64,000 nucleotides of DNA from Parcubacteria bacterium GBS-2 (GTDB lineage: Bacteria; Patescibacteriota; Minisyncoccia; Minisyncoccales; GBS-2). Below, in pieces: positions 4,446 to 34,887 of this stretch. Under the pieces are notes generated by a model. The model did not search any database and was not told where the DNA came from. It worked only from the letters and a program-made list of their open reading frames with translations. The stretch's first letter is position 1; each line of letters opens with the position of its first letter. Location of the stretch: contig LEKP01000001.1 of the NCBI GenBank assembly GCA_001443025.1, positions 56-64,055 on the forward strand, read 5' to 3'. The position numbers and the translations under genes are program-made.

Positions 4446-4819
4446 GAGAAAAAGTGGGGAAAATTGGGGAGGAAATTGCGGTTGATTTTTTGAAGAAAAA
4501 GGGATATCAAATTTTAGACAGAAATTATAAATTCAAAATTCCTGGAGATTTACAAAAGGGAGAGATTGACATTGTTGCGAAAAAGAAAGATACAATTTGC
4601 TTTGTTGAAGTTAAAACTTTAAAAAATCCTAAAATTGAAATTTTTCCAGAAGAGAAAATCAATCTTTCAAAAAAGAAAAAATTGATCGCAACTGCAGAAA
4701 GTTGGTTAATCAAAAACAAAATCCCCTTAGATTCAAAATGGCAAATCGATGTGATTTCAATCGTGATTAAAGAAGGGAAAACAAAAATTTCTCATTTTGA
4801 GAATGCAATCTCAGCTTGA
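4442..4819 (+). CDS. yraN: YraN-family (UPF0102) endonuclease-like protein
   Basis: GEEIAVDFLKKKGYQILDRNYK...GEIDIVAKKKDTICFVEVKT is the typical YraN pattern. ATGA overlap with the upstream gene. Confidence 0.8.
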   Translation: MREKVGKIGEEIAVDFLKKKGYQILDRNYKFKIPGDLQKGEIDIVAKKKDTICFVEVKTLKNPKIEIFPEEKINLSKKKKLIATAESWLIKNKIPLDSKWQIDVISIVIKEGKTKISHFENAISA

Positions 4820-4886
4820 CATTAAATTCTAAAGAGATAAAATAAGAATTAGCTGAGGGAATTTTTTGGGAGTTTTCCCTCCCGAT

Positions 4887-4911
4887 GAAGCTCTTTGTAG
4901 CTTCTTTTTTT
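4887..4911 (+). terminator. Rho-independent terminator after yraN
   Basis: GAAGCT-CTTTGT-AGCTTC stem-loop followed by T7. A second hairpin GAGGGAA..TTCCCTC lies just upstream. Confidence 0.6.
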
Positions 4912-5497
4912 ATTTTAGAGTCAAAAATATTCTTTGAATTGCAGTTAAATTTGAAAAAATTGCCAAAAGAGAAATTGGGTAAATTATTAAATTTTGATTA
5001 AAAATTCCAACAAAGAGGGTTATCGAAAGCAAAATCATTCTTTCTCCTCTTCCAAAGAATCCTTTTTTTAATTCTTGAGAAACTAACTCCTTTTCTTTTG
5101 CTGCTGCCTTTGCATAAGTTGTCATTAAAGAACCAAAAAAAGCCAAAAATATCCAATATTTCGCTTCGATAATGAATTTTGGCAAAGGCAAAGATAAAAC
5201 TCCCAAAAAAATCAATCCTTCGACGAATCTATCTGAAATCGTGTCCAAATAAGCGCCAACTTTTGTTACTTTTCCAGAATACCTCGCAACTACCCCATCG
5301 ATAAAGTCTAAAAATGCTGAAATCAAAAAGAAAATCAAAGCTAAAATAAAATTTCTATAGACCAAAGAGACAAAACAAAAAATTCCAAAAACTATTGAAT
5401 TTAGAGTGTACTGATTTGGGCTAGCTCCTAGTTTTGAGAAAATTCTCCCAATTTTTTCTTCAATTTTTTTAAATTTTTCTCTTTTTTCTTCCAACAT
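4910..5497 (-). CDS. CDP-alcohol phosphatidyltransferase family protein
   Basis: 195 aa, multi-TM. DFIDGVVARYSGKVTKVGAYLDTISDRFVE matches the DG..AR..8..G...D...D signature. Confidence 0.8.
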   Translation of the reverse strand: MLEEKREKFKKIEEKIGRIFSKLGASPNQYTLNSIVFGIFCFVSLVYRNFILALIFFLISAFLDFIDGVVARYSGKVTKVGAYLDTISDRFVEGLIFLGVLSLPLPKFIIEAKYWIFLAFFGSLMTTYAKAAAKEKELVSQELKKGFFGRGERMILLSITLFVGIFNQNLIIYPISLLAIFSNLTAIQRIFLTLK

Positions 5498-6149
5498 ACT
5501 TTTGAATTTTTACAAGATTTCTTTTTAAATGATCGATCAATTTTTCAAAAAAATTTGCCCCTTCCCCAACAACTCTTCCTTCTCCTTTCTTTATTTTTTT
5601 AAAAATCTCTTCAACTGACAAATTTTCTCCTGGAATTTCCAAATAACACTTTCCAATGAAATTTAGAGAATGGGAATCTGAACCAACGGTAAAAGGGATA
5701 TTATTTTCTTTTGCAAATTTTTTTGCAATCTCATTTCCATTGCCAAAAATTGATCCATTCAATATCTCGATCGCATCTATTTCTTTTATTAATTCTTCTA
5801 AATTTCCTTTGAATTTGCAAAAAAGTCCAAAAGGATGGGGAATGACCACAAAGCCACCTTGCTCTTTTATTTTTTTTATCGTTTCTTTTGCTGAAAGTCC
5901 ATCTGGAATTTTTTCTTTTACATTCAATCCCAGAATATCTCCTTCTTTGCTTTTTATTTCAATCCCTGGGATAATTAAAATAGGCTTTCCTTTTGAATAT
6001 TCAATCGCTTCGAAAGCCCCTTCAATTTCCCCGTGGTCAGTGATTGCGATACAATTAACTCCTTCTTTTATTGCTTTATCTACAATTTCTTTTGGCGAAG
6101 CATTGCTATCGAATGAATAGCAAGAGTGAGTGTGAAAGTCGCATTTCAT
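5469..6149 (-). CDS. PHP-domain metal-dependent phosphoesterase
   Basis: MKCDFHTHSCYSFDS...AITDHGEIEG...GSDSHS are PHP histidine/aspartate motifs. 29-nt overlap with the downstream transferase gene. Confidence 0.75.
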   Translation of the reverse strand: MKCDFHTHSCYSFDSNASPKEIVDKAIKEGVNCIAITDHGEIEGAFEAIEYSKGKPILIIPGIEIKSKEGDILGLNVKEKIPDGLSAKETIKKIKEQGGFVVIPHPFGLFCKFKGNLEELIKEIDAIEILNGSIFGNGNEIAKKFAKENNIPFTVGSDSHSLNFIGKCYLEIPGENLSVEEIFKKIKKGEGRVVGEGANFFEKLIDHLKRNLVKIQKYVGRKKRKI

Positions 6150-6164
6150 CTTTTATTTTAATTC

Positions 6165-6740
6165 ATGTTTTATCAATCTACAATCTACAATTTGAAATTT
6201 ATAATTTCTTGCCTCTATTTTTTCTTACCAGCCTATTTTGCCAACATGACCCCACCGATCGCAAAGAAATTGGGAGTTTTAAAGTCTTTAGCAAAGCCAA
6301 TCGATTTTGACAAAAAATTTTTTGGAAAACCAATTTTTGGTTCTCATAAAACCTGGAGGGGAGCGATTTTGGCATTTTTTGTTGGGTTTTTAACTGCCTT
6401 GATTCAAGGATTTCTCTTTAATTTTGAACTTTTTAAAAAAATTTCAATTATTGATTACTCAAGGATTAATATTTTTCTCTTTGCTATTCTAATTTCTCTT
6501 GGTGAAATTTTCGGAGATTTATTTTTCGCTTTTGTTAAAAGAAGAATTAACCTGAAACCTGGAGCTCCTTTTATTCCCTTTGATCAAACAAACTACGTCT
6601 TTGGTTGTTTTTTGTTTTTGCAACCTTATTTGAAATTGGATTTGAAAATTTGGCTGACCATTTTAATTTTGACTTTTTTCTTACACATAATTTTCAACCG
6701 TCTAGGTTATTACTTGAAAATCCATAACGCAAAATGGTAA
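6165..6740 (+). CDS. carS: CDP-archaeol synthase (CarS, DUF46) homolog
   Basis: 191 aa, multi-TM. LPAYFANMTPP, PIDFDKKFFGKPIFGSHKTWRG, GEIFGDLFFAFVKRRINLKPGAPFIPFDQTNY and a C-terminal ...KIHNAKW track remembered archaeal CarS motifs (PIDFGK..GDGKTWRG; GDL..SFIKRR; ...VPW). Confidence 0.75.
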   Translation: MFYQSTIYNLKFIISCLYFFLPAYFANMTPPIAKKLGVLKSLAKPIDFDKKFFGKPIFGSHKTWRGAILAFFVGFLTALIQGFLFNFELFKKISIIDYSRINIFLFAILISLGEIFGDLFFAFVKRRINLKPGAPFIPFDQTNYVFGCFLFLQPYLKLDLKIWLTILILTFFLHIIFNRLGYYLKIHNAKW

Positions 6741-6749
6741 AATCAGATT

Positions 6750-7379
6750 ATGCTTGAAAAAATCTTTGAGATTTCTCCCTCTTTCTTTTGGGCAGGAATA
6801 ACTTTACTTTTTGGAATTTTGGTCGCAAAATTGTTTGAAAAGATCTGTCAAAGATTTTTGGAAAGAATAAGGTTAAATTCAGTTTTAAAAAGAATTGGAT
6901 TGAAAGAAGGGTTTGAAAAAATTGGAATCTCTCTCGATGCTCAAAAATTTTTCTCAGAAATTGTTCAATGGTTCTTTATCATTTTGTTTTTGATGGTCTC
7001 TTTTGAAATTTTAGGACTGTCAAAGTTTAGCGATTTTTTAGAAAAAGTTATTCTCTATTTTCAAAACATTTTCATTTCGATTTTGATTTTCATTTTCGCT
7101 TCTTATTTGATCGATTTTTCTCAAAAAGTTTTTGTTGGCTCTCTTGAAAGAGAAAAAATAACTTATTCTAGAACCTTTGGAAAAGGGTTTTCCCTTTCAA
7201 TTTGGGTTTTGAGCACTTTGGCGATTCTTTATCAACTGAAAATAGTTCCTGAACTGATTTTGGCAATCTTTGTTGGAGTAATTCTGATTATAGTTTTGGT
7301 AGTGGGCATTTCTTTTGGCTTGGCGGGAAAAGGAGTTGCAGAAAAATTCTTAAAGGAAATTGAGGAGAAACTAAAATAA
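6750..7379 (+). CDS. Multi-pass membrane protein (conserved-TM-helix / MscS-N-like)
   Basis: 209 aa with about 4 hydrophobic segments. No catalytic motif recognised. Confidence 0.3.
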   Translation: MLEKIFEISPSFFWAGITLLFGILVAKLFEKICQRFLERIRLNSVLKRIGLKEGFEKIGISLDAQKFFSEIVQWFFIILFLMVSFEILGLSKFSDFLEKVILYFQNIFISILIFIFASYLIDFSQKVFVGSLEREKITYSRTFGKGFSLSIWVLSTLAILYQLKIVPELILAIFVGVILIIVLVVGISFGLAGKGVAEKFLKEIEEKLK

Positions 7380-7380
7380 A

Positions 7381-9168
7381 ATGGAATATTTGACTCAAAA
7401 TGAGCTAAAGAGAATGTTTTTGAAATCTTGGGAAAGAATAGAGAAAGAAAAAGAAGAAATTAACAAAATCAACGTTTTTCCGGTTCCAGATCAAGACACT
7501 GGAACGAATTTAGCAAAGACTTTGGAGGGAATAAAAAAGGAAATTGAAGGAAAAGAATTCAAGGATTTAGAGGAAATTTCAAAATCTGCCCTAGAAGGAG
7601 CTTTAATTTCTGCTCAGGGAAATGCGGGTGTAATTTACACTGGCTTTTTAGCTGGATTTTTGCCAAAGTTAAACAAAAATCCAGTTGATGCAAAAAAACT
7701 AGCAGAGGCATTCGAGGAAGGAAGAAAAAGAGCTTGGAAATCTATGGTAAATCCAAAAGAAGGAACGATTTTGGATGTAATCGATGTAGTCGCTGAAACT
7801 TTTAAAAAAGAGGCAGAGAGAGAAAAAGATATTGTGAAAATTTTTGAAAAAGTAATTGAGAAGGCAAAAGAGGCGCTTTTGGCAACCAGAGAGAAAATGG
7901 AAATTTTTAAAAAAGCAAACGTCGTTGATGCAGGAGGGCTTGGCTTTTTAATGATCTTGGAAAGTTATTTGGATGCTTTAAAGCCAGAGGAGAAAAGGGA
8001 AAGAGAGAAAGAAAAGCCATCTGAAGAAATCAGAAGGTTCGTTCAAGTTTTGACAAACAGGTTTGAAGTAGTCGCTCTAATTTTGGATCCGAGGTTTGAT
8101 GAGGAGAAGGTAAAGGGAAAATTGAAGAAATTGGGAAATTGCCTAGACATTGTTAAAGTTGGAAACAAAATGAAAATTCACATTCATACTGATTATCCTG
8201 AGGAGGTCAGAGATGAAATAAAAAAGATCGGAAAAATTGAGAATTTGAGAATTGAAGATATGGCAAAAGAAATTGCTGGTGAGCCATCTTTAAGGAAAGT
8301 TTCAATCGGAATTGTTACTGAAGATGTAGCTTCGATTTTGCCAAAAATTTTAGAAAGGTATCAAATCGAAATTGCAAAAACAAAGTTTAATTGGCCAGAA
8401 TTAGAAAAAATCGAGGGAGAAAATATTTATCAAAAGATCAAAAAGGCTTATGAAATTGGGATCGAAACTAGACCAAGAACTTCTCAAGCAACTCCAAAAG
8501 AATATTTCGAAGCCATTAAAAAACAACTTCAAAATTTTGAAAAAGTTTTGTGTTTGACTGTAAGTTCAGGGCTTTCTGGATGCTACAATTCTGCGACTCA
8601 AGCAAGGGAAATGTTTTCAGAAAAAGACAGAGAAAGGATTTTTATTTTTGACACTCAAAACGCAGCAGCAGGTCAAGCCCTTTTTGTTTTAAGGGCAATT
8701 GAATTGATTCAAGAGCAAAGAGAAATTGAAGAAGTTATTGAAGAATTAAAAAAATTGATTCAAAAAACTCATTTGTATATTATTTTTGCCGATCCAAAAG
8801 GAATAGAATTTATTGGAAGAATAACAAAAAGTCAAGCAAATTGGATAAGGAGAATGAAGAAATTGAAGATCCATCCAATAATGACAATAAAAAATGGAGT
8901 TTTAACAAAAGGAGGAACAGTTTTTGCCAAAGACGAACCAGAAACCCTTTTTAAGAAAATTTTAAAAGAGAGTAAAAAAGAAAGAAAATTGGGAAAGAAA
9001 ATAAGGGTAATCATCAATCACGCTGACAATTTAGACGGGGCAAAAAGGTTAAAGGAATTTTTGAAAGGAATTGGAGCTGAAATTTCTTTTATCTCAGAGG
9101 GACCTCCGATAATTTGTGCTGTTACTGGTCCTGGAACTTTGATTTTAGGTTGGCAGCCAATTGAATAA
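7381..9168 (+). CDS. Fusion protein: FakA/YloV-like DAK2 (DhaL) kinase domain plus full DegV (FakB-like) domain
   Basis: N-terminus: PVPDQDTGTNL, AQGNAGVIYTGF, KEGTILDV, ANVVDAGGLGF (DhaL/FakA N-domain motifs). Middle: KIHIHTDYPEEV (YloV-type). Residues ~310-595: IGIVTEDVASILP...TSQATPKEYFEAI...LTVSSGLSGCYNSATQA...GPGTLILGW, colinear with the three downstream DegV paralogs. Confidence 0.75.
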   Translation: MEYLTQNELKRMFLKSWERIEKEKEEINKINVFPVPDQDTGTNLAKTLEGIKKEIEGKEFKDLEEISKSALEGALISAQGNAGVIYTGFLAGFLPKLNKNPVDAKKLAEAFEEGRKRAWKSMVNPKEGTILDVIDVVAETFKKEAEREKDIVKIFEKVIEKAKEALLATREKMEIFKKANVVDAGGLGFLMILESYLDALKPEEKREREKEKPSEEIRRFVQVLTNRFEVVALILDPRFDEEKVKGKLKKLGNCLDIVKVGNKMKIHIHTDYPEEVRDEIKKIGKIENLRIEDMAKEIAGEPSLRKVSIGIVTEDVASILPKILERYQIEIAKTKFNWPELEKIEGENIYQKIKKAYEIGIETRPRTSQATPKEYFEAIKKQLQNFEKVLCLTVSSGLSGCYNSATQAREMFSEKDRERIFIFDTQNAAAGQALFVLRAIELIQEQREIEEVIEELKKLIQKTHLYIIFADPKGIEFIGRITKSQANWIRRMKKLKIHPIMTIKNGVLTKGGTVFAKDEPETLFKKILKESKKERKLGKKIRVIINHADNLDGAKRLKEFLKGIGAEISFISEGPPIICAVTGPGTLILGWQPIE

Positions 9169-10066
9169 AAAATCAAAAATCAACATGCAAAATGAAAATT
9201 TAAAATCAAAAATTGGAATTGTCGCAGATGAAGGAGGAGATTTACCAAAAGAATTAATTGAAGAGCACAAAATTTCAATTGTGCCTTTTAAGGTTGATTT
9301 GGGTGAAATGAAAGATTTGGCAGGAAATATTTATCAGAGAATTAGGGAAGCAGAAAAGAGAGGATTGAAAAGTTTTGTTAAAACCTCACAACCTTCACCA
9401 GGAGATTTTTTGAAGGCATTTAAAGAAAAGTTAAAAGAATTTGAAGAGATTATTTGCGTTACCGTTACTTCAAAACATTCTGGAACTTTCAATTCTGCTT
9501 TGCAGGCAAAAGAATTTTTGCCAGAGAAAGAAAAAATTCATGTTCTGGATTCAATGAGTGTTTCTGGGGGAGAAGGATTGATAATTTTGAAGGTAGTTTC
9601 TTTGATAAAGAGTGGTTTGAAAATAAGCGAAGTTTTGGAAAAATTAAAGGAATCAATTTTAAAAACCAATTTAGTTTTTGTTTTGGAAAATCCAAAATGG
9701 GCGGTAGCCTCTGGGAGGATCCCAAAAGTTCTTGGTGCTCTTTTGGAAAGAATGCAAAGATTAGGTTTTTATCCTGTTTTGACAATAAAAAAGGGAAAAA
9801 TAAAGTTGAGTAGCATCAGAAAAGGAGTTAGAGATTTATCGGACGCTCTTTTTGAAGAATTTAAAAGCAAGATTTCAAAAGAAAAAGTTAAATCTGAAAT
9901 CAAAATTACAATCACTCATGCAGACAATGAAAAAGAAGCTAAAAAGCTTGAAGAATTAATTTTAAAGGTCAAAAACTGCAAAATTGAATTTAAAAACATT
10001 ATCGGAAACATCCTCGGTGGTCTCTCAGGTCCTGGAGCTTTAGTTTTGGCTTGGCAAATAGAATAA
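9161..10066 (+). CDS. DegV-family fatty-acid-binding protein
   Basis: IGIVADEGGDLP...TSQPSPGDFLKAF...VTVTSKHSGTFNSALQA...GPGALVLAW. Confidence 0.85.
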   Translation: MNKKSKINMQNENLKSKIGIVADEGGDLPKELIEEHKISIVPFKVDLGEMKDLAGNIYQRIREAEKRGLKSFVKTSQPSPGDFLKAFKEKLKEFEEIICVTVTSKHSGTFNSALQAKEFLPEKEKIHVLDSMSVSGGEGLIILKVVSLIKSGLKISEVLEKLKESILKTNLVFVLENPKWAVASGRIPKVLGALLERMQRLGFYPVLTIKKGKIKLSSIRKGVRDLSDALFEEFKSKISKEKVKSEIKITITHADNEKEAKKLEELILKVKNCKIEFKNIIGNILGGLSGPGALVLAWQIE

Positions 10067-10070
10067 AAAT

Positions 10071-10766
10071 ATGCATGTAGTAGTAATTCCAGACGGAAAC
10101 AGAAGGTGGGCAAGAAAGAGAAGGTTTTTACCTTGGCAAGGGCATATTGAAGGAGCAAAAACATTAGAAAAAATTTTAAAGAAAGCCTGGGAATTAAAAA
10201 TTCCTTATTTTACTTTTTGGGGAATGTCAGCAGACAATGTCTTAAAAAGACCAAAAAAAGAAGTTGAGGTTTTATTTTCAATTTTCAAAAAACAATTTAA
10301 AAAATTAGCAAAATCAAAAGAAATTCAAAAAGAGGGAGTAAAAATTAATGTTTTTGGGCTTTGGAAAAAATTTTTTCCAGAAAATGTAAAAGAAGCAATA
10401 AAATCAGCAATTGAAAGAACAAAGAAAAATCAAAAATTTGTTTTAACTTTTTTGTTGGCTTATAACGGCACAGACGAAATGTTAGAGGCAATCAAAAAAA
10501 TTGTGAAAAAAGCAAAAGAAAAAGAAATTGAAATTACAGAAAAATTGTTACTTGAAAATTTATGGACAGGGTCTTTGCCCCCGGTGGATTTGGTAATTAG
10601 AACAGGATGTGAAGACGATCCCCACAATTCTGCAGGTTTTATGATGTGGCATACAGCTTACTCTCAATTTTACTTTACAAAAACTTTTTTTCCAGATTTT
10701 TCTCCAGAGGAGTTTGAAAGAGCGATAAAAAATTTTCAAAAAAGAGAAAGAAGATTTGGAAAATGA
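10071..10766 (+). CDS. uppS: Isoprenyl (undecaprenyl-type cis-prenyl) diphosphate synthase
   Basis: VVIPDGNRRWARKR, FTFWGMSADN, IRTGCEDDPHNSAGFMMWHTAYSQFYF. Confidence 0.85.
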   Translation: MHVVVIPDGNRRWARKRRFLPWQGHIEGAKTLEKILKKAWELKIPYFTFWGMSADNVLKRPKKEVEVLFSIFKKQFKKLAKSKEIQKEGVKINVFGLWKKFFPENVKEAIKSAIERTKKNQKFVLTFLLAYNGTDEMLEAIKKIVKKAKEKEIEITEKLLLENLWTGSLPPVDLVIRTGCEDDPHNSAGFMMWHTAYSQFYFTKTFFPDFSPEEFERAIKNFQKRERRFGK

Positions 10767-11638
10767 AAAAAATAAGTTTAATAATCGGGCAAACTTCATC
10801 TTTACCAAAAGAAGTCATAGAAGAACACGGGATAGTTTGCGTTCCTTACATTGTTAATTGGCCGGAAGGAGAAAAAATTCCTGGGGAAAACATTTTTCAG
10901 AAAATGAGAGAGGCTGAAAAAGAGGGAATTTTGACCCTTCCGAAAACCTCTCAACCATCTCCCGGAGTTTTTAAAAAAATTTTTGATGAAGAATTAAAAA
11001 GAGCAGAAAAACTCATTGTTTTGACTTTAAGCTCAAAACTTTCTGGTGGTTATAATTCTGCCCTTCAAGCAAGAGAAATAATTCCAGAAAAAAATAGGAT
11101 TTTTGTTTTAGATACGTTAAACGTTACAGTTGGTGAAGGATTGATCGATCTTTATGTTGTAAAAATGATCCAAGAAGGAAAAGATGAAAGAGAAATTTTA
11201 GAAAGATTCCCCCAAATTATTAAGAACACGCATTTATTTGGAATGGTTGAAGATCCAAAATGGCTAGAAAGAGGGGGAAGGATTTCCCATTCTTTTGCTC
11301 TTTTGCTAGAAAAAATGCAAAAAATCGGAATGAGACCTTTGATCGGTGTTAAAAATGGAAAGGTAAAACCAGTTGCCTTAAAAATGAAAGCAAAGGATGT
11401 TCCAGAAGCTCTTTTCAGAGAATTGAAAAAGGAAGTTGAGAAAATTAAAGATAAAAAAGAAATTAAAATAGCAATCGGGCATGCTGACAATTTAGAGGGA
11501 GCTGAAAAATTAAAAGAGTTAATTAAAAAAAATTTAAAGGAAATAGAAATTTTGTTTTTAGGATTGATCGATCCTGTAATTGGAGTTCATGTCGGTCCTG
11601 GAAGCTTGGCAATAGCTTGGTCTCAGTTTAAACTATGA
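10763..11638 (+). CDS. DegV-family fatty-acid-binding protein
   Basis: TSQPSPGVFKKIF...LTLSSKLSGGYNSALQA...GPGSLAIAW. ATGA overlap with uppS. Confidence 0.85.
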   Translation: MKKISLIIGQTSSLPKEVIEEHGIVCVPYIVNWPEGEKIPGENIFQKMREAEKEGILTLPKTSQPSPGVFKKIFDEELKRAEKLIVLTLSSKLSGGYNSALQAREIIPEKNRIFVLDTLNVTVGEGLIDLYVVKMIQEGKDEREILERFPQIIKNTHLFGMVEDPKWLERGGRISHSFALLLEKMQKIGMRPLIGVKNGKVKPVALKMKAKDVPEALFRELKKEVEKIKDKKEIKIAIGHADNLEGAEKLKELIKKNLKEIEILFLGLIDPVIGVHVGPGSLAIAWSQFKL

Positions 11639-12474
11639 AAAAAATTGGAATTATCACCGAAGATGTTTGCTCTTTACCAGAGAGAATTATCAAGTATTTT
11701 GGAATTGAAATTGTAAAAACAAAGCTTTATTTTCCAGAATGGGAAAAATTTCCAAAAAATAATCTTTATCAATTGATGGCAGAGACAAAGGCAACTCCAA
11801 AGACTTCTGCTCCATCACCGGGGGACTATTTGAGAGCCTATAAAAAAGTTTTAGAAGATTTTGAAAAAGCGTTGGTCATTACTTTATCATCAAAACTTTC
11901 TGCATGTTATAATTCTGCTCTTCAGGCCAGAGAGGTTTTTGAAAATCCAGAAAAAGTAATAATTGTAGATTCTCTTCAGGCTGTTGCTGCTCAAGGACTT
12001 TTAGTTCTAAAGGCAGTCGAATTGATTAAAGAGAGAAGAGAAGTTAATGAAATTTTGGAGGTTTTGGAAAAATTGAAGAAAAAAATAAAACTTTTTGGTT
12101 TTTTAAGAACAACTTATTGGGCAGAAAAAATCGGGAGGATCAGCAAAAGAATGGCCCTTGCTTTCAGTACATTAAGAATTCTTGGAGTTTATCCTTATTT
12201 TGGAATCAAAGATGGAAAGATTGGATTTTCTGGATTTAATCTTTGGACCTACGATGAGCTTGAGGCAATGTTTAATCAATTAAAACATCAGGCAAAAAAA
12301 GGAAAAATTAGAGTTGGAATAAATTATACTGACAATCCTGACATTGCTTTAAAATTAAAAGAAAAAATCGAAAAAGAATTAAGGACAGAGGTTTTATTCG
12401 TTTCGATGGTTCCTCCAATTGTCGGTGCAAACTCAGGTCCTGGAACTTTAATTTCAGCTTGCTACCATGTTTAA
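11635..12474 (+). CDS. DegV-family fatty-acid-binding protein
   Basis: IGIITEDVCSLP...TSAPSPGDYLRAY...ITLSSKLSACYNSALQA...GPGTLISA. Confidence 0.85.
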   Translation: MKKIGIITEDVCSLPERIIKYFGIEIVKTKLYFPEWEKFPKNNLYQLMAETKATPKTSAPSPGDYLRAYKKVLEDFEKALVITLSSKLSACYNSALQAREVFENPEKVIIVDSLQAVAAQGLLVLKAVELIKERREVNEILEVLEKLKKKIKLFGFLRTTYWAEKIGRISKRMALAFSTLRILGVYPYFGIKDGKIGFSGFNLWTYDELEAMFNQLKHQAKKGKIRVGINYTDNPDIALKLKEKIEKELRTEVLFVSMVPPIVGANSGPGTLISACYHV

Positions 12475-13075
12475 ATTTATTTTCCTTTCAATCTTTGCCT
12501 ATTTCTTTGGTTCAATACCAACCGCTTTTTTAATTGGTAAATCAAAAGGAATAGATATTAGAAAAATTGGTTCAAAATCAATCACTGAAACAAATTTGGC
12601 AAGGGCTTTGGGCTGGAGATACGGAATAATTAGTGGAATTTTAGACGTTTTGAAGGGAGTAATTCCGACTCTTTTGGCAAAAAGCTTTTTAACTAACAAT
12701 TGGCAAATTATTTTAGTTGCTCTTTTGCCAACTTTGGGTCATGATTTTCCAATTTTTTTAAAGTTCAAACATGGGGGAAGAGGCGCTACAACGTTTTTTG
12801 GCGCTTCAATAGCTTTAGTTGGAATTAAATTTTTCTTTCCTCTTTTTTTAATTTGGCTTTTAATTCTCTCTCTAACAAAAATGACAGGCTTAACCAATTT
12901 TATTTTCCCTTGGGTTTTTTCAATTTTCCTTTACTTTTGGTACAAAATTGGTTTTTTTCCTTTTGAATATTTCATCTTTGGAATTTTGGAAGCGATTTTG
13001 ATAAACTTTGCATTAAGGAACAATATTAAAAGGTTGTGGGAAGGAAAAGAGCACAAAACTCCTCTAAAGTTTTAA
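12467..13075 (+). CDS. plsY: PlsY-like acyl-phosphate:glycerol-3-phosphate acyltransferase (copy 1)
   Basis: FGSIPTAFLIGKSKGIDIRKIGS, DVLKG, GHDFPIFLKFKHGGRGATT. The first motif is degenerate (GSKSITETN instead of GSGNxGATN). Confidence 0.7.
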   Translation: MFKFIFLSIFAYFFGSIPTAFLIGKSKGIDIRKIGSKSITETNLARALGWRYGIISGILDVLKGVIPTLLAKSFLTNNWQIILVALLPTLGHDFPIFLKFKHGGRGATTFFGASIALVGIKFFFPLFLIWLLILSLTKMTGLTNFIFPWVFSIFLYFWYKIGFFPFEYFIFGILEAILINFALRNNIKRLWEGKEHKTPLKF

Positions 13076-13077
13076 CC

Positions 13078-14208
13078 ATGTTCATTAAAGGAGTTGGAAT
13101 GACAAAATTTGATTATTCCCAAAAACCCTGGTGGAAGTTTGCCTTTGAAGCTGCAATGGAAGCATTGGAAGACTCGAAAATGAAAATTTCTCAAATTGAT
13201 TGCATTGTTTTTACTGGGATGGAAAGTTGCGATGGATTTTTTGAGCATCAGACCCACAAAACCTCTCTTTTGTCTGATCTTTTTAAAACTCATGTACCAA
13301 TAATTGAAGTTCCTGCAGTTTGTGCTGGAGGAGGAGTTGCTTTCTGGACTGCTTTAAAGCTAAAAGGGTTTAAAAACATTTTAGTTTTGTCAGGGGAAAA
13401 ATTGGTTGATAATTTAACTCCAGTTACAACCCATTGGATAGCTTCTGCAATTGAAAGAGAAATTGAGCAACCAGAAGGTCTGAATTTTCCTTTACAAAAC
13501 GCTCTAATCTGGGAGCAATACAAAAGAAAATACGGGGCAACTCACGAAGATTTAGAATTGATTTCTTTCAAAAATCATCAAAACGCAACCTTGAATGAGA
13601 AAGCATATTTTTATAAAAGACCTGTAACTTTAGAACAAATTAAAAATGCGCCAAAAATTGCCGGAGATTTTACAATGTACGATTGCTCTCTTTCTGTTAA
13701 CGGAGGATCCGCAGTGATTTTAACGCAAGAAAAAACCGACATTCAAGTTATAGGTTCTGGATTTGCTACTGATTATCTTTTAACTTTTGGTAGAGAAGAT
13801 CCAACCCATTTTGTTGCAACAAAAATTGCAGCAAAAAAAGCCTTTGAAGAAGCGAAAATTAAACCTCAAGATGTCCAAGTTGCAGAAATTCACGATGCTT
13901 TCACATCAGTTGAACTAATCTCTTACGAAGATTTAGGGTTTGCACCAGAAGGAAAAGGAGCAGAATTAATCAGAAAAGGAATTGTTAATTTAGATGGAAA
14001 ATTGCCAGTCAATCCTTCTGGAGGTTTAAAGGCAAGAGGTCATCCAATCTCTCCTACTGGGTTGGCTCAAATTTATGAGATAGTGAAGCAATTGAGGGGG
14101 CAAGCTAGAGAAAGGCAAGTAAAACCTATTCCAAAAATTGGTCTTTGCCACAATATTGGAGGAGCTGGAGGATCAGTTACTGTTCACATTATTAAAAAAA
14201 TATCTTGA
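13078..14208 (+). CDS. Archaeal/SCP-x-type thiolase-like condensing enzyme
   Basis: MFIKGVGMTKF..., active-site-like VPAVCAGGG, C-terminal NPSGGLKARGHPISPTGLAQIYEIVKQLRGQA...CHNIGGAGG. ATG 13078 (2 nt after the plsY stop) is preferred over the ORF-track start 13036. Confidence 0.75.
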   Translation: MFIKGVGMTKFDYSQKPWWKFAFEAAMEALEDSKMKISQIDCIVFTGMESCDGFFEHQTHKTSLLSDLFKTHVPIIEVPAVCAGGGVAFWTALKLKGFKNILVLSGEKLVDNLTPVTTHWIASAIEREIEQPEGLNFPLQNALIWEQYKRKYGATHEDLELISFKNHQNATLNEKAYFYKRPVTLEQIKNAPKIAGDFTMYDCSLSVNGGSAVILTQEKTDIQVIGSGFATDYLLTFGREDPTHFVATKIAAKKAFEEAKIKPQDVQVAEIHDAFTSVELISYEDLGFAPEGKGAELIRKGIVNLDGKLPVNPSGGLKARGHPISPTGLAQIYEIVKQLRGQARERQVKPIPKIGLCHNIGGAGGSVTVHIIKKIS

Positions 14209-15135: not shown

Positions 15136-15618
15136 TCAAAAAAGTCTAAGTAAATTTTTAATTTTCTTTTTCATTCTTTTATTTACTTCAATTGCGCAAA
15201 TTCCCTTTTTCGGAAAACCATAGACCACTAAAGAATTTTTTGGAGCTAGCAAAACCGCAGGAATTGCTAAAAGATCTTCCTCTCCCTCAATAAAGACATT
15301 TTTGTTTTCTTTGATTGCCTTTTTAATCGTTGACCAAGCCTCTTTTTGAATTGTTCCTCTTTGGTTTTTACATTTTAAAGAATATGGCAAAATTTTTTTG
15401 ATTTTCTTCCTTCTTACTTTTCCATCAAAGATTTTGATATTAGAAGGTAAATTTAGTGAGCAATAATCCCCAACCGTAATTACTTTCTTGAATTTTTTCT
15501 CTTTCAAAAATTTTTCAAATTTCTCTTTTGCTTTTCTTTTTTCCCCAAATATTGCCACTCCCCAAATTTTCCTTAATTCCTTTTTCAATTCCTCTGGCAA
15601 AATATAAGTTTTTTGCAT
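15136..15618 (-). CDS. DUF359 protein (archaeal-type GTP-dependent dephospho-CoA kinase family)
   Basis: MQKTYILPEELKKELRKIWG..., VITVGDYCSLNL...IFDGKVRRKK, EGEEDLLAIPAVLLAPKNSLVVYGFPKKG. Start at Met 15618 is preferred; the ORF track extends to 15762 across the divergent gene. Confidence 0.65.
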   Translation of the reverse strand: MQKTYILPEELKKELRKIWGVAIFGEKRKAKEKFEKFLKEKKFKKVITVGDYCSLNLPSNIKIFDGKVRRKKIKKILPYSLKCKNQRGTIQKEAWSTIKKAIKENKNVFIEGEEDLLAIPAVLLAPKNSLVVYGFPKKGICAIEVNKRMKKKIKNLLRLF

Positions 15619-15629
15619 ATCATTATTAT

Positions 15630-18243: not shown

Positions 18244-18984
18244 ATGTTCAAAGATAAAGTTGTTTTAATTACAGGTTCTGCTCAAGGAATTGGGGAAGCG
18301 ATTGCTTTGAGATTTGCAAAGGGAGGAGCAAAAATTGCCTTGAATGATATTGAAGCACAAAAGGAGAATTTGGAAAAAGTGAAAAAAGAAATTGAGGAAT
18401 TGGGGAGTGAAGCAAAATATTATTTTGCTGATGTTTCAAAATATGAAGAAGTAGAAAGAATGATAAAAGAAATTGAAAAAGATTTTGGAAGATTAGATGT
18501 TTTAGTGAACAATGCAGGAATTATTAAAGATAGGACTTTAGCAAAAATGACTCCAGAAGAATGGAAAGCAGTGATCGATGTTAATTTAACCGGAGTTTTC
18601 AATTGTACAAAGGCAGCCTTGCCTTTAGTTATTGCCAATCAAGGAAACATAATTTCAATTTCTTCGATCGTTGGGGAGAGAGGAAATTTTGGACAAACAA
18701 ATTATGCAGCAGCAAAAGCAGGGATTATTGGATTTACAAAGAGTTTGGCAAAAGAACTTGGAAAATTTGGAGTAAGGGTAAATGCAATAGCCCCTGGATT
18801 TATTGAGACGAAAATGGTAGAATCTGTACCAGAAAACATTAAGGTCTTAGTAAGACAGTTAACTGCCTTGGGAAGATTTGGCAAACCAGAAGAGGTAGCA
18901 AACTTGGTTTATTTTTTGGCATCGGAAGAAGCTTCCTTTATTACTGGAACAGTCATTAATATTGATGGGGGGTTATCCATCTAG
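18244..18984 (+). CDS. fabG: 3-oxoacyl-[ACP]/acyl-CoA reductase (SDR, FabG-like)
   Basis: TGSAQGIG, NNAG, catalytic YAAAKAG, PGFIET. Confidence 0.85.
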   Translation: MFKDKVVLITGSAQGIGEAIALRFAKGGAKIALNDIEAQKENLEKVKKEIEELGSEAKYYFADVSKYEEVERMIKEIEKDFGRLDVLVNNAGIIKDRTLAKMTPEEWKAVIDVNLTGVFNCTKAALPLVIANQGNIISISSIVGERGNFGQTNYAAAKAGIIGFTKSLAKELGKFGVRVNAIAPGFIETKMVESVPENIKVLVRQLTALGRFGKPEEVANLVYFLASEEASFITGTVINIDGGLSI

Positions 18985-18991
18985 TAAACCT

Positions 18992-20107: not shown

Positions 20108-20120
20108 ATAGGAGTAATAG

Positions 20121-21679: not shown

Positions 21680-22580
21680 AAAAAACAGAGTTTGTCAACT
21701 TTTAGGAATTAAATATCCAATAATTCAAGGGGGAATGGCAGGGATTTCTGAGTCGAATTTGGTTTCTGCTGTATCTAATGCTGGAGGTTTGGGAGTGATT
21801 GGCTCTGGATTGATGCCCCCTTCTTGGTTAGAAAGAGAGATTAAGTTGACAAGAGAGAAAACAAAGAACCCCTTTGGAGTGAATTTGTTCATGCAAAACC
21901 CAAAAGTTGAAGATTTGGTTAGAGTTTTAATTAAAGAGAAACCTCCAGTTGTTTTTACAGGAGGCGGAAATCCATTACCAGTTTTTCCTTACTTGAAAAT
22001 GGTGGGAATAAAAATAATTCCAGTGGTTCCTTCCCCAAGATTAGCAAAGAAAATGGAAGAAAACGGAGCAGACGCTGTCGTCGTTTCTGGATGGGAGGCA
22101 GGAGGACATGTCGGAAAGAATACTTTGTTTTCTCTTTTGATTGAAACTAAAAAAATTGTAAAAATTCCAGTAATTGCTGCAGGAGGAATTTACGATGGAA
22201 AAACCGCAAGGGCAGCATTTTTGTTAGGGGCAGAAGGAATTCAAATGGGAACTAGATTTTTAGCCTCAAAAGAGTGTATTGCATCCGAAGCTTACAAGAA
22301 AAAAATTGTTGAAGCGACAATGGATGATGTTGAAGTTGTTTTGTGGAATACAGGTCATCCAATAAGAGTAATAAAGAATAATTGGTCAGAAAAGGTTAAA
22401 AAAATTGAAGACAAAATTTTTCCAGAAGAAATCAAAGCAGAGAAAATTGCAGGATCTCTTGGAGGCCAAAAAGTTGATGATATTCCTCTTTTGGCAGGAC
22501 TTTCTGTAGCTGGTATTTTTGAAATAAAAACTTGCAAAGAAATTATTGAAGAAATTGTTAAAGAGCTTTCTGAATTATGA
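21669..22580 (+). CDS. fabK: Enoyl-[ACP] reductase II (FabK) / nitronate monooxygenase family
   Basis: LGIKYPIIQGGMAGIS, VVVSGWEAGGHVG, PVIAAGGIYDG, GAEGIQMGTRF. Met 21669 is preferred. Confidence 0.65.
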   Translation: MEFEKNRVCQLLGIKYPIIQGGMAGISESNLVSAVSNAGGLGVIGSGLMPPSWLEREIKLTREKTKNPFGVNLFMQNPKVEDLVRVLIKEKPPVVFTGGGNPLPVFPYLKMVGIKIIPVVPSPRLAKKMEENGADAVVVSGWEAGGHVGKNTLFSLLIETKKIVKIPVIAAGGIYDGKTARAAFLLGAEGIQMGTRFLASKECIASEAYKKKIVEATMDDVEVVLWNTGHPIRVIKNNWSEKVKKIEDKIFPEEIKAEKIAGSLGGQKVDDIPLLAGLSVAGIFEIKTCKEIIEEIVKELSEL

Positions 22581-23239
22581 ACAAATTATTAAGTTGGTTT
22601 TGCTACATTTTCTTAAAACCAATTGTTAAATTAATCTGGATAAAAGAAATTAGAGGGCTTGAGAACATCCCAAAGTCAAATTTCATCTTAGCAGCAAATC
22701 ATCAAAGCCATTGGGACCAAGTAATTACTGGATATTTGTGCGTTCCGAGAAGCTTTACTTATCTAGGACAGATTGATAAATACTCAGGATTTGGCGCTTT
22801 TTTAAGAGATTTTCTTTATTTTATTGCGGGAGTAATTCCAGTTCATAGGTATGACGAAGAATCGAAAAAGAGAGCGATTAAAAAATGTATAGAAAGGTTA
22901 AAAAAAGGAGAAATTTTGATTATGTATCCTGAAGGGACGAGGTCAAAAGATGGGAAGATCCACGAAGGAAAACCAGGGATCGCAAAAATTTATCTTGAAA
23001 CTGGAATTCCGATTTTACCAGTGGCAATCAAAGGAAACTTTGAAATAATGCCAGTTGGAAAACCTTTTCCAAAATTTAAAAAAATTGTCAAAATCAATGT
23101 CGGAAAACCTTTAGAATTTAAAAAAGAACTTGAAATTGGAAGGAATTTAAACTGTCAGTCTCCAGAATATAAAGAAATTTGCCAAAAAATTATCCAAAAG
23201 GTAATGGGAGAAATAAAAAATCTTTTCGACCAATTGTGA
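22577..23239 (+). CDS. plsC: 1-acyl-sn-glycerol-3-phosphate acyltransferase (PlsC family)
   Basis: AANHQSHWD (HX4D), MYPEGTRS, PILPVAI. Confidence 0.85.
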   Translation: MNKLLSWFCYIFLKPIVKLIWIKEIRGLENIPKSNFILAANHQSHWDQVITGYLCVPRSFTYLGQIDKYSGFGAFLRDFLYFIAGVIPVHRYDEESKKRAIKKCIERLKKGEILIMYPEGTRSKDGKIHEGKPGIAKIYLETGIPILPVAIKGNFEIMPVGKPFPKFKKIVKINVGKPLEFKKELEIGRNLNCQSPEYKEICQKIIQKVMGEIKNLFDQL

Positions 23240-31736: not shown

Positions 31737-31747
<11 letters not shown>

Positions 31748-33293
31748 AAAAGAAATTGAAAAATTAAACAAAAAATTAAAAGATTTGGAAAAGCCAGAAT
31801 TTATTGAAAAACAACACCAAAAAGGAAAACTGACTGCTAGAGAAAGGATAAGTTTGCTTTTGGATCCTGGAAGTTTTGTTGAATTGGATCCTTTTGTAGA
31901 AAGCAGATCTGAGTATTTGAAATTGAAATACAAAGAAGAGAAATTTCCTGGTGATGCAGTAATTACTGGTTTTGGAAAAATAAACGGTCGACAAGTTTTT
32001 GTTTTTTCTCAAGATTTTTCAAAAATTGGTGGAACTTTAGGGGAAATGCACGGTGAAAAGATTGCAAAAGTTTATCAATTTGCAAGAAAAAATGGATGTC
32101 CGATTATTGGAATTTATGATTCTGGAGGGGCAAGAATTCAAGAAGGAATTTTTTCTTTACAAGCTTATGCAAAAATTTTTAGAGAACAAGTTTTATCTTC
32201 TGGAGTCATTCCCCAAATTGCGCTAATGCTTGGACCTTCTGCAGGAGGAGCCTGCTATGCTCCAGGGCTTTCAGATTTCATTTTTATGGTCGAAGGAATA
32301 TCTTTCATGTTCATTACAGGGCCAGATGTTATCAAAAAGGTCTTGGGAGAAGAAATCTCTTTTGAGGATTTGGGAGGAGCAAAAGTTCATTTTCAAAAAT
32401 CAGGATGCGCCCATTTTATTTTTAAAGCGGAAGAAGCATGTTTTTCAGGAGTGAAAAAATTATTATCTTATTTGCCACAGAATAATTTAGAAAATCCACC
32501 AACGAAAATTGGGATGCTAGCTGAAATTTTTGAAAAAGAAGAAAGCTTGAGACTTTTGGAAATTTTGCCAAAAGAAGAGGAAAAAGGATACGATATGAGA
32601 GAAGTGATAAAAGAAATCTTTGATCGAGGAAGTTTTTTTGAAGTTCAAGAAGGCTTTGCTCAAAATGCAATAGTTGGTTTTGCAAGGTTAGCAGGATATG
32701 TAGTTGGGGTAGTGGCAAATCAGCCAAAAATTTTAGCTGGAGTTTTGGACATTGATTCTTCAGATAAAATTTCAAGGTTTGTTAGATTTTGCGATTGCTT
32801 TAACATTCCAATAATTAATTTGGTCGATACTCCGGGTTATTTACCAGGGAAAGAGCAAGAATCAGGAGGAATCATCAGACATGGAGCAAAAGTCTTGTAT
32901 GCTTTTGCAGAAGCTACTGTTCCAAAGATTTCAGTAATTTTGAGGAAGGCATTTGGTGGAGCTTACATTGCCTTAGCATCAAGAAATTTAGGCTACGATT
33001 ATGTTATAGCTTGGCCCACTGCCCAAATTTCTGTGATGGGGCCAGAGCAAGCAGTAAAGGTTCTCTATAAAAAGGAAATTGCTCAGGCTAAAAACCCAGA
33101 TGAATTTGAAAAAGAAAAGATCAAAGAATTCAAGGAAATCTACCTTGATGTTTTCAATGGTGCAAAAGAAGGACACGTTGATATGATAATCAATCCAAAA
33201 GATACTAGAAAGATTTTAATTAAATGTTTAGAATCAATCTTTCAAAAGAGGGGAGAGAAAGTTCCGAGAAAACACGGAAATATTCCTCTCTAA
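31737..33293 (+). CDS. Acyl-CoA carboxylase carboxyltransferase subunit (PccB/MmdA type)
   Basis: 518 aa. GKLTARERISLLLDPGSF, GGARIQEG, MGPSAGGACYAPGLSDF, GGIIRHGAKVLYAF. Start overlaps the atpC end by 11 nt. Confidence 0.9.
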
Positions 33294-34249
33294 AAATTGG
33301 AATTGTCGGGATGGGAAGGACTGGTTCAATGTTCTTTCAAGAGTTGAAAGATTCTTTTGAAGTTCTTGGAATTTCAAAAAAGGAAGATATTGAGCTAATA
33401 AAAAAAGGGAAAATTTGGATCAAGAAAAATGGGAAAATCGAGGTTTTGAAAGGGAATTTTCTTTTAGATAAAGACTTTAATCATTCTTTTGACTTTTTGT
33501 TTTTCACAGTTAAAAATCCAGTAGGGCCTGCAATTTCTTTTTATTTTAGAAGAATAAAGGAGAAAAAATTGAAAATCCCAGCAATTTTTCTTTCTCAAAA
33601 CGGAATTGAAGCAGGTGAAGAAGCAATCTCTATTTTAAAAGAAATTTTTGGAGAAAAGGCCAAAGAAATTCCAGTTTTTAGAATTTCACTTTTTAATCCA
33701 GTTGAGAAAGAAATTGAAAATGAAAAAATTTTGATTTCTTATTCTTTACCAATTAAAATGGCTATTTCTCAAATTTCAGGTCCAAGAGTTAATGTTTCTG
33801 AGATTTTTGACAAAAATTTTAAAGTTTTCTTTATGGATTCAAAAAACGCAAAAAATATGGAATATTCGAAGCTTTTTTTGAACTTAATTGGAATGCCCTC
33901 TGCAACTTATGGTTTCTCAATTAAAGAAGGTTTTTTAAAAAAAGAAATTTTTAAAGAAGAAATTTTAGCCTTGAGAGAATACAAAAAAGTCGTTAAACTT
34001 TCTGGAGGAAAATTTTTGAACTTCCCAGGTTATCCCGTGGAAATTCTTTCTTTTTTGATTTCTCTTCCGATTTTTCTTTTGGTATTCCTGAGAAATATCT
34101 TGGTAGAAAAAATAGAAAAAGGAAGGGCAGGAAAAAAGAAGGATTTAGACGAAATAGATTATTACAATGGAGCGGTTTTGAAAATGGCAAACAAATTAAA
34201 GGTTGAGGTTCCAATAAATTCAAAAATTTTAGAGAGAGTAAAAAAATGA
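33224..34249 (+). CDS. Ketopantoate reductase (PanE/ApbA)-like NAD(P)-binding oxidoreductase
   Basis: KIGIVGMGRTGS Rossmann motif, FDFLFFTVKN, C-terminal DEIDYYNGAVLKMANKLKVEVPIN. Start uncertain: ATG 33224 overlaps the upstream gene by 70 nt, and the next ATG (33311) would cut the GxGxxG motif. Confidence 0.55.
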   Translation: MFRINLSKEGRESSEKTRKYSSLKIGIVGMGRTGSMFFQELKDSFEVLGISKKEDIELIKKGKIWIKKNGKIEVLKGNFLLDKDFNHSFDFLFFTVKNPVGPAISFYFRRIKEKKLKIPAIFLSQNGIEAGEEAISILKEIFGEKAKEIPVFRISLFNPVEKEIENEKILISYSLPIKMAISQISGPRVNVSEIFDKNFKVFFMDSKNAKNMEYSKLFLNLIGMPSATYGFSIKEGFLKKEIFKEEILALREYKKVVKLSGGKFLNFPGYPVEILSFLISLPIFLLVFLRNILVEKIEKGRAGKKKDLDEIDYYNGAVLKMANKLKVEVPINSKILERVKK

Positions 34250-34887
34250 AAGAATTTTTGGTTTTAATTTTTTCTTATCTTTTGGGCGCAATACCCTTTG
34301 GTTTTATATTCACAAAAATTTTTGCAAAAAAGAACATTTTAGAAATTGGTTGGAGAAAGACTTCAGGATCTAATGTTTTCAAGAATGTTGGAGCTCTACC
34401 TGGAGCTTTAACCGGAATTTGTGATGTTTTGAAGGGAGCTTTAGCAGTTTATTTGGCAAGGAAATTAGGATTTCCTCTTGAAATTCAATCTTTGTGTGCT
34501 CTTTTTTCTGTTTTAGGTCACAACTGGTCAATATTTTTGAAATTTGCTGGGGGAAGGGGAATTGGAACTTTCATGGGTTGCCTTTTAATTTTAGCTCCAA
34601 AAATTCTTTTTTACTCTTTAATTCCCTTTTTATTTTTTGCCCTGATTTTAGATACTTCACTCGCCACTATTTTATTTTTACTTTGCTCAATTTTTCTTTC
34701 TCTAAAAACCAAAGTTTTAATTTTTACTCTTCCAGTTTTCTTTTTCATTCTTTTGAAAAGATTGAGTCCAATAGGCGAACTTTCAATTAACAATAAAAAT
34801 TTGATTTTGGCAAAGTTAATTTTTGATGATGAAAAATTTCATCCAATGAGGTTTCAAAAAATCGTTCAAAGATTGACGAAAAAATAA
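34246..34887 (+). CDS. plsY: PlsY-like acyltransferase (copy 2, divergent)
   Basis: LLGAIPFGFIFTKI, CDVLKGALAVYLA, LGHNWSIFLKFAGGRGIGT. First motif degenerate (TSGSNVFKN). Confidence 0.65.
   Translation: MKEFLVLIFSYLLGAIPFGFIFTKIFAKKNILEIGWRKTSGSNVFKNVGALPGALTGICDVLKGALAVYLARKLGFPLEIQSLCALFSVLGHNWSIFLKFAGGRGIGTFMGCLLILAPKILFYSLIPFLFFALILDTSLATILFLLCSIFLSLKTKVLIFTLPVFFFILLKRLSPIGELSINNKNLILAKLIFDDEKFHPMRFQKIVQRLTKK

Follow-up and report, generated by a model that had tools for sequence, protein, structure and literature searches.

The stretch of DNA described here, 64,000 nucleotides from the genome of Parcubacteria bacterium GBS-2 (contig LEKP01000001.1; referred to below, at its full length, as the window), harbors a gene for a homolog of CarS, the archaeal enzyme that activates ether lipids with CTP. 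The gene is arranged divergently from a pair of genes that encode a CDP-alcohol phosphatidyltransferase (CAPT) and a phosphoesterase of the PHP family. We consider it probable that this catalytically intact CarS-family enzyme acts as the only CDP-diacylglycerol synthase of the bacterium, and that it feeds a phosphatidylinositol phosphate (PIP) synthase and a PIP phosphatase to give phosphatidylinositol. The organism most likely makes ester-type CDP-diacylglycerol and phosphatidylinositol, and not archaeal ether lipids. This view draws on the family, fold, and active-site columns of the CarS-like protein, on the lack of both CdsA and the core ether-lipid genes, on the linkage of the genes across many genomes, and on the presence of an inositol-3-phosphate synthase (MIPS); from these we infer that the substrate is an ester-linked diacyl-phosphatidate, that the head group is inositol, and that the PHP protein is the PIP phosphatase.

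In the pathway envisaged, fatty acids would be converted into acyl-phosphates by a FakA-FakB kinase, and glycerol-3-phosphate would then be acylated by PlsY, which is encoded in three copies. A PlsC-type acyltransferase would add the second chain to produce diacyl-glycerol-3-phosphate (phosphatidate), which the CarS-like enzyme would combine with CTP to form CDP-diacylglycerol. The CAPT, which resembles the synthases of PIP and of archaetidylinositol phosphate (AIP), would transfer this activated lipid to inositol phosphate, supplied by the genome's own MIPS, and the PHP phosphoesterase would remove the remaining phosphate from PIP to leave phosphatidylinositol. The genome's single CAPT requires a CDP-activated donor, and the CarS-like enzyme is the one representative of the CdsA/CarS superfamily that the genome encodes.

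The genome that contains the window comprises 659 kb in 7 contigs, is 94% complete, and belongs to the Patescibacteria, also known as the Candidate Phyla Radiation (CPR). The window has a G+C content of around 32% and contains bacterial housekeeping genes, including those for the F1Fo ATP synthase operon, NusA, YraN, and the FakA/DegV fatty-acid kinase. Distribution across the phylum was followed in one evenly drawn sample of 201 genomes, searched with several families, and distribution within the genome's own lineage was followed in 6 other genera of its family and 54 other genomes from its order. In what follows, G numbers refer to genomes and L numbers to loci.

Identity and distribution of the CarS-like protein

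The CarS-like open reading frame (ORF; 6165..6740, + strand) encodes a protein of 191 aa that is assigned as a CarS-family CTP:lipid cytidylyltransferase. It matches PF01864 over positions 3-175 of the 175 in the model (E 1.5e-30, 106.9 bits, with a cut-off of 22), and can be aligned end to end with CarS from A. pernix (5GUF). An AlphaFold2 model of the protein (pLDDT 92.9) has 5GUF as its best match in the PDB, with a probability of 1.00, TM scores of 0.68/0.81 (0.81 by target), an rmsd of 3.0 Å, and 23% identity in the structural alignment, whereas the fold match to T. maritima CdsA (4Q2G) is far weaker (TMq 0.38). Across 18 diverse CPR homologs, 13 columns are invariant: N27, P45, G59, K62, R65, G66, G117, D118, K125, R126, G133, D140, and Q141. 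These include the KT.RG, GD...KRR, and DQ motifs of CTP and metal binding, which line up with the same motifs in 5GUF; residue-level catalytic assignments are based on this alignment together with a review of the enzymes (PMC9385802). The closest named homologs are from Patescibacteria, and the public annotation of such CPR genes is already "CDP-archaeol synthase".

An earlier note on this DNA, made from the letters alone, had recognized the reading frame as CarS by, among other features, its P.D...G..KT.RG and GD...F.KRR motifs. The profile match over the full model, the alignment, and the predicted fold bear out that identification, and these motifs, like DQ., fall on the invariant columns. 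The same note described the CdsA used by most bacteria as unrelated to CarS, which is wrong. CarS and CdsA belong to one CTP-transferase superfamily (PMC9385802), as distant members, and the CarS-like protein accordingly has a partial match to PF01148, the CdsA family, in which residues 61-138 align with positions 169-238 of 264 (28.6 bits). This reading frame is the sole match to PF01864 and PF01148 in the genome, and there is no second CarS. By profile search, CdsA is absent from the window, as the note had observed, and likewise from the rest of the 94%-complete genome, so that redundancy with a canonical CdsA, which had been raised as a refuting case, does not apply. A search for Tam41 (PF09139) likewise gave no match, but as its control gave none either, that negative carries no information. 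The ORF is the genome's single gene of the CTP_transf_1 superfamily, and would be its CDP-diacylglycerol synthase.

Within the phylum sample, strong full-length CarS-like genes are found in 29 of the 201 genomes (~15%) and true CdsA, with scores of 82-180 bits on ORFs of ~260-310 aa, in 6 (3%); no genome has both (0/201). A CAPT is present in all 29 CarS-like genomes, as against 45/172 of the others, and in 20 of the 29 the two genes lie no more than 2 kb apart. In the genome's own lineage, a CarS-like gene occurs in 6/6 other genera of the family and in 13/54 other genomes of the order, 11 of them strong and full-length.

The divergent gene pair and the nature of the head group

A spacer of 15 bp (6150..6164) separates the start codon of the carS-like gene from that of the divergent pair, as the ORF coordinates confirm for the arrangement described earlier. 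Scans for promoters and terminators across 4700-7500 gave nothing above shuffled expectation (12 promoter-like sites vs 8.0 ± 2.8). The gene next to the spacer (5469..6149, - strand, 226 aa) encodes a PHP-family metal-dependent phosphoesterase that matches PF02811 (E 7.9e-15) and PF13263 (E 3e-15), and it also scores above the cut-off for the CehA/McbA metallohydrolase domain (86.2 bits, cut-off 80). Its translation has intact metal-binding motifs: HxH at residues 6-8, ITDH, PHP, and DSH. Gene order alone makes this protein the candidate PIP phosphatase, and its assignment is the weakest step of the pathway.

The second gene of the pair overlaps the first by 29 nt. It encodes the CAPT (4910..5497, - strand, 195 aa), the sole PF01066 match in the genome (E 7.7e-19), and its translation contains the complete CAPT motif, D64x2D67G68x2A71R72x8G81x3D85x3D89, in keeping with the earlier assignment of this gene to the class of enzymes that consume CDP-activated lipids. 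Among the NCBIfam models, AIP synthase scores best at 135.8 bits, followed by PIP synthase at 77.7 and di-myo-inositol phosphate phosphate (DIPP) synthase at 69.5; the PgsA models reach only 24-27 bits, and the Pss models are also far below the AIP and PIP synthases. The best solved relatives (4MND, AF2299, and the mycobacterial PIP synthase MtPIPS) are all inositol-phosphate enzymes. The residues of MtPIPS that contact inositol phosphate, listed in PMC9385802 and mapped by HMMER alignment to 6H53, are S132, K135, R155, R195, R152, Y133, and R137, and they correspond to T127, K130, R153, R189, R150, Y128, and A132 in the GBS-2 protein, so that 6/7 are kept or, in the case of S132 to T, conservatively changed. 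The genome also encodes MIPS (470.9 bits).

The inositol-phosphate signature has a second reading, in which the transferase is a DIPP synthase, the PHP protein is a DIPP phosphatase, the product is the thermoprotective solute di-myo-inositol phosphate, and the CarS-like gene is a mere neighbor. The best solved match of the transferase is indeed the bifunctional inositol-phosphate cytidylyltransferase (IPCT)/DIPP synthase of A. fulgidus (4MND, E 9.5e-12), and MIPS is present. A generic nucleotidyltransferase scores 44 bits on the IPCT portion of the bifunctional profile, but 14/14 control genomes have such a match, making it non-specific. The AIP synthase profile, however, scores about twice as high as the DIPP synthase profile, and the linkage of CarS to CAPT in 20/29 genomes, including five loci labeled as Saccharibacteria, points to a lipid donor. 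We regard production of the solute as very improbable.

The gene neighborhoods of relatives extend this linkage. The order CAPT-PHP-CarS is found in G087, G186, G155, and the five loci that carry the Saccharibacteria label in GenBank, and in a woesearchaeote (L039) PHP-CarS lies beside doubled CAPTs. Elsewhere, CarS and CAPT are accompanied by a haloacid dehalogenase (HAD) phosphatase resembling PGP_phosphatase or by a calcineurin-like phosphoesterase (G151, G084, G118, and G191). A phosphatase thus recurs beside CarS and CAPT while its family varies between PHP, HAD, and metallophosphoesterase; a slot filled in this way by unrelated families is to be expected if the head-group intermediate is phosphorylated, be it PIP or phosphatidylglycerol phosphate (PGP). 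Most of the CarS-adjacent CAPTs that were scored have AIP synthase as their best profile. On contig 7 of G151 (L019:3807-6736), a HAD phosphatase, a CAPT resembling AIP/PIP synthase, a CarS-like gene, and MIPS follow each other in one same-strand row, and these four genes have the appearance of an entire operon for phosphatidylinositol within a single CPR genome. In seven genomes from four families (L015:4318-7730 in G112; L008, L009, L010, L013, L014, and L017) the order is nusG-CarS-rplK-CAPT-rplA. The otherwise universal nusG-L11-L1 cluster is in these CPR genomes interrupted by two lipid genes; in L024, CarS sits inside the nusG-rplK cluster and the transferase is absent from it. Finally, Psd-CAPT-CarS occurs in two loci, from metagenome-assembled genomes (MAGs) labeled as Methanosarcinales (L045) and Woesearchaeota (L047).

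A phosphorylated intermediate would also be formed if the transferase were a PGP synthase that uses glycerol-3-phosphate, with the PHP protein as PGP phosphatase and phosphatidylglycerol as the product of an otherwise identical pathway. Phosphatidylglycerol is the usual bacterial product of such two-step logic, the transferase is the only CAPT of the genome, some CarS-adjacent CAPTs are PgsA-like (the one in L030, which is paired with a HAD phosphatase, and the doubled one in L039), and MIPS is missing from most CPR genomes that bear CarS and CAPT. Set against this are the scores of the GBS-2 transferase itself, with 24-27 bits for the PgsA models in comparison to 135.8 for AIP synthase, solved relatives that are all inositol-phosphate enzymes, with S. 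aureus PgsA recovered only at E 0.0048, largely conserved inositol-phosphate contacts, and a MIPS gene in the genome. We therefore judge phosphatidylglycerol to be an unlikely product, and prefer phosphatidylinositol.

Ester-lipid genes, archaeal ancestry, and the weight of contrary evidence

The carS-like gene is the first in a same-strand run that continues with a small membrane protein, fakA-fakB, degV, uppS, two further degV genes, and plsY. The FakA-FakB protein (7381..9168, +) is a Dak2-DegV fusion that contains Dak2, FakA_M, and DegV domains, matches the NCBIfam FakA and FakB1 models, and as a fatty-acid kinase would supply acyl-phosphate. Pfam identifies a DegV/FakB paralog at 9161..10066 (+), UppS at 10071..10766 (+), and two further DegV paralogs at 10763..11638 and 11635..12474 (both +). 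Next comes the first copy of PlsY, the acyl-phosphate:glycerol-3-phosphate acyltransferase (12467..13075, +; PF02660 E 2.5e-36; TIGR00023 131.3 bits). A second copy (34246..34887, +; PF02660 E 1.1e-31) overlaps the ORF upstream of it, and of the three copies in the genome these are the two inside the window. The PlsC-type 1-acylglycerol-3-phosphate acyltransferase is found at 22577..23239 (+; PF01553 E 5.7e-26; TIGR00530 79.3 bits). The closest named relatives of the CarS-like protein (L036 and L037, 51-55% identity) have the order plsY-carS-membrane protein-fakA/degV. The small membrane protein (6750..7379, +) has two MscS-type TM-helix repeats (PF05552 E 1.1e-10), and its homologs lie between carS and fakA in L036 and L037 (48% and 34% identity); it may possibly have a lipid-related role.

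Searches of the whole genome gave no match for geranylgeranylglyceryl phosphate synthase (GGGPS; PF01884), for UbiA-type prenyltransferases, which include digeranylgeranylglyceryl phosphate synthase (DGGGPS; PF01040), or for the Fe-ADH_2 family that includes glycerol-1-phosphate (G1P) dehydrogenase (PF13685). Without these there is no encoded route to archaetidic acid, and the presence of three PlsY copies, PlsC, FakA-FakB, and DegV makes the context one of bacterial glycerol-3-phosphate ester lipids. The earlier note had suggested that the CarS homolog, with a prenyl synthase of the geranylgeranyl diphosphate (GGPP) type at 20121, lends the lipid metabolism an archaeal flavor, and had proposed a genome check for the three ether-lipid enzymes. 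That check came back empty, and the flavor is only partly supported: it is warranted as regards the ancestry of two of the enzymes, for which archaeal profiles score best and DPANN archaea provide relatives, and not for the lipid chemistry. The polyprenyl synthase does have the short-chain IdsA/GGPP-type enzyme as its best score, but the supply of primer for UppS (10071) suffices as an explanation.

A true CDP-archaeol synthase, activating ether lipids that are scavenged from archaeal neighbors or made by unrecognized enzymes and giving archaeal-type or mixed membranes, is quite improbable. In family, fold, and motifs the protein does match CarS, its nearest relatives outside the CPR, from Woesearchaeota and Nanoarchaeota, are 39-45% identical, a short-chain IdsA/GGPP-type synthase lies in the cluster, and characterized CarS prefers digeranylgeranylglyceryl phosphate (DGGGP) as its substrate (PMC9385802). 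Yet the genome lacks GGGPS, DGGGPS, and G1P dehydrogenase of these families, GGGPS is found above cut-off in 0/201 genomes of the phylum, the carS-like gene sits among plsY, fakA, and plsC both here and in close relatives, and the prenyl synthase is accounted for by the UppS of the same operon.

UppS also enters a further alternative, in which the product of the carS-like gene would be a polyprenol kinase that uses CTP, similar to dolichol or phytol kinase, and would recycle undecaprenol for the cell wall. Some members of the CTP-transferase superfamily are CTP-dependent kinases, and the fourth gene downstream, on the same strand, encodes UppS. The end-to-end match, however, is to CarS and not to the kinase-type members, conserved linkage connects the gene with CDP-alcohol transferases and with enzymes of head-group synthesis, as in the Psd-CAPT-CarS order of L045 and L047, and the only CAPT of the genome would be left with no CDP-lipid donor. 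A kinase function is on these grounds scarcely credible, and the role of CDP-diacylglycerol synthase is retained.

Several observations weigh against this role and the pathway built on it. To our knowledge, no bacterial CarS-like enzyme has been characterized biochemically. The protein scores 131.7 bits on the NCBIfam CarS equivalog model NF003114, below the cut-off of 148, and from its sequence is to be regarded as a member of the CarS family, not a certified equivalog. The transferase is likewise under the equivalog cut-offs (135.8 vs 180 for AIP synthase; 77.7 vs 170 for PIP synthase), and one inositol-phosphate contact, R137 of MtPIPS, is replaced by alanine. The one archaeal CarS that has been purified, from A. 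fulgidus, favors DGGGP as substrate over phosphatidate, and its introduction into an E. coli cdsA mutant gave no complementation (PMC9385802, citing Jain 2014). Activity of the CarS-like enzyme on diacyl-phosphatidate would therefore mean a change of specificity. The route to phosphatidate is also incomplete on paper, since searches of the genome found no acyl carrier protein (ACP; PF00550), PlsX, or GpsA, so that neither the acyl donor for PlsC nor the origin of the glycerol-3-phosphate is accounted for. At the level of the phylum, PHP homologs are found in 59/201 genomes, a tally that includes the unpublished genome G154, on which nothing claimed here depends, and adjoin a CAPT in only 5, so that the link between PHP and lipids is not general. 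MIPS, present in 5/201 genomes, is missing, as mentioned above, from most CarS/CAPT-bearing genomes, and PlsY occurs in 8/201. As both genes are rare in the sample, the GBS-2 genome is unusual in encoding a phosphatidate route together with its own inositol phosphate, and most other CarS carriers presumably salvage phosphatidate or inositol phosphate.

A number of further genes in the window touch on these gaps. The ORF that runs into the beginning of plsY copy 2 (33224..34249, +, 341 aa) encodes an ApbA/PanE-like NAD-binding protein and, given that no canonical GpsA was detected, may be the missing glycerol-phosphate dehydrogenase. Three stretches, 13036-14208, 18244-24762, and 31737-33293, hold clustered genes for FabG, FabZ, FabK, biotin carboxylase, biotin carboxyl carrier protein, a carboxyltransferase, BirA, BioY, and a thiolase of the archaeal type. 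ACP-independent fatty-acid synthesis has been proposed for archaea, and this Fab/thiolase cluster without ACP resembles it. Another enzyme of an archaeal family is the DUF359 protein at 15136-15762 (-), which belongs to the family of the archaeal GTP-dependent dephospho-CoA kinase.

The ancestry of CarS was approached with a tree of 71 sequences, made up of 45 bacterial CarS-like proteins, 20 archaeal ones, and 6 CdsA sequences as the outgroup. CdsA is cleanly apart from the CarS-like sequences, among which the protein of the window is one of four in a CPR clade (100/99) beside Woesearchaeota and Nanoarchaeota. These DPANN archaea are its nearest relatives outside the CPR, and four of their MAGs have L21e and lack sigma-70, so that they are archaeal at the genome level. 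Bacterial and archaeal labels interleave across the tree with 9 changes, of which at least 3 are forced by well-supported branches alone. An approximately unbiased (AU) test did not reject a constraint that places all archaeal CarS in one clade (p 0.065), and the interleaving of CPR and archaea is therefore not statistically secured. The phylogeny that the earlier note had called for thus yields DPANN archaea as the nearest non-CPR relatives and leaves the interleaving unsecured. Exchange of CarS between DPANN and CPR lineages is suggested by these sequences, with no claim as to the direction of transfer. L041:2983-4750, a candidate archaeal CarS, was given no weight, as it lies beside a sigma-70 gene, the sole one in that "uncultured archaeon" MAG; the contig is probably a mis-binned bacterial one, or else a transferred block.

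Two loci from Woesearchaeota MAGs that have L21e and no sigma-70 (L042:601-3528 and L039:231-3528) carry CarS beside doubled CAPTs, with a PHP phosphoesterase near CarS in L039 and a PlsC-type acyltransferase in L042. Gene content of this kind hints that some DPANN archaea may also handle acyl lipids.

Relation to known systems and significance

The CarS-like protein shares with the archaeal enzymes (ApCarS 5GUF and AfCarS) its family, a length of ~180-190 aa, a helical membrane fold (TM 0.81 to 5GUF), and its motifs, and presumably also the chemistry by which CTP and a lipid phosphate give a CDP-lipid and PPi. It differs in being found in a bacterial host that has PlsY, PlsC, and Fak and has no GGGPS, DGGGPS, or G1P dehydrogenase; in a host without ether-lipid genes, the likely substrate is ester-linked diacyl-glycerol-3-phosphate rather than DGGGP. 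With CdsA (TmCdsA 4Q2E/4Q2G, PF01148) it shares its superfamily, a catalytic core, and, as we infer, the pathway position between phosphatidate and CDP-diacylglycerol. Unlike CdsA, at ~260-310 aa, the 191-aa protein has no N-terminal part, and it is not a member of the CdsA family.

The proposed pathway also mirrors the prokaryotic route to phosphatidylinositol, as known from Mycobacterium (PgsA1 6H53/6H59) and Bacteroides (BT_1526/BT_1523/BT_1525; PMC9246714), in its two steps via a phosphorylated intermediate, in its CAPT motif, in what appear to be mostly conserved contacts to inositol phosphate, and in the presence of MIPS. In contrast to bacterial PIP synthases, the transferase is nearer to the archaeal AIP synthase profile (135.8 vs 77.7 bits), and the CDP donor would come from CarS and not from CdsA. 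The phosphatases also differ: that of Bacteroides is a PgpA-type protein, BT_1525 (PMC9246714), whereas the candidate here is of the PHP family. The PIP/AIP phosphatase of mycobacteria and archaea is listed as unidentified (PMC9385802).

Part of this picture was already available. The annotation of CDP-archaeol synthase exists, and the route via CDP-diacylglycerol to phosphatidylinositol has been partly anticipated in print: Starr et al. 2018 predicted that a Saccharibacterium converts imported diacyl-glycerol-3-phosphate via CDP-diacylglycerol into phosphatidylinositol, and assigned the CDP-diacylglycerol step to a 'putative phosphatidate cytidylyltransferase' (PMC6031116). The passages of that paper on this route mention neither CarS nor a PHP phosphatase, and according to them the Saccharibacterium must import phosphatidate, whereas the GBS-2 genome encodes PlsY, PlsC, Fak, and its own MIPS. 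A limited literature search returned no paper on CarS in CPR/Patescibacteria and none on a PHP-type PIP phosphatase, although such papers may exist. What is added here are the phylum tallies, the self-sufficient PlsY/PlsC/Fak/MIPS context, the placement of lipid genes within the ribosomal-protein cluster, the MIPS operon of G151, and the tree with its AU test.

A wider interpretation, which we hold tentatively and with some doubt, is that CarS-type enzymes may be the usual CDP-lipid activators of the CPR, acting on ester-linked diacyl-phosphatidate, and that the split between CarS and CdsA may be independent of the divide between archaeal and bacterial lipids. CarS would on that interpretation have been exchanged between CPR and DPANN together with head-group cassettes (CAPT and a phosphatase, or Psd and CAPT), and the PHP protein would represent a second, non-PgpA type of PIP phosphatase. 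By telling archaeal lipids from bacterial ones, CarS and CdsA are held to "uphold the lipid divide" (PMC9385802). If a natural CarS does operate in a bacterial ester-lipid pathway, it would provide, with its archaeal counterparts, a ready pair of specificity variants, which would allow the features of the lipid groove that select isoprenoid or acyl chains to be mapped. The recurring phosphatase slot is likewise a source of candidates for the PIP/AIP phosphatase. The finding bears on how the ultra-small, lipid-poor CPR bacteria complete their membranes, and the single head-group route present here points to phosphatidylinositol, a lipid that is uncommon in bacteria. If the DPANN link holds, it would represent an exchange of lipid genes between two groups of episymbionts.

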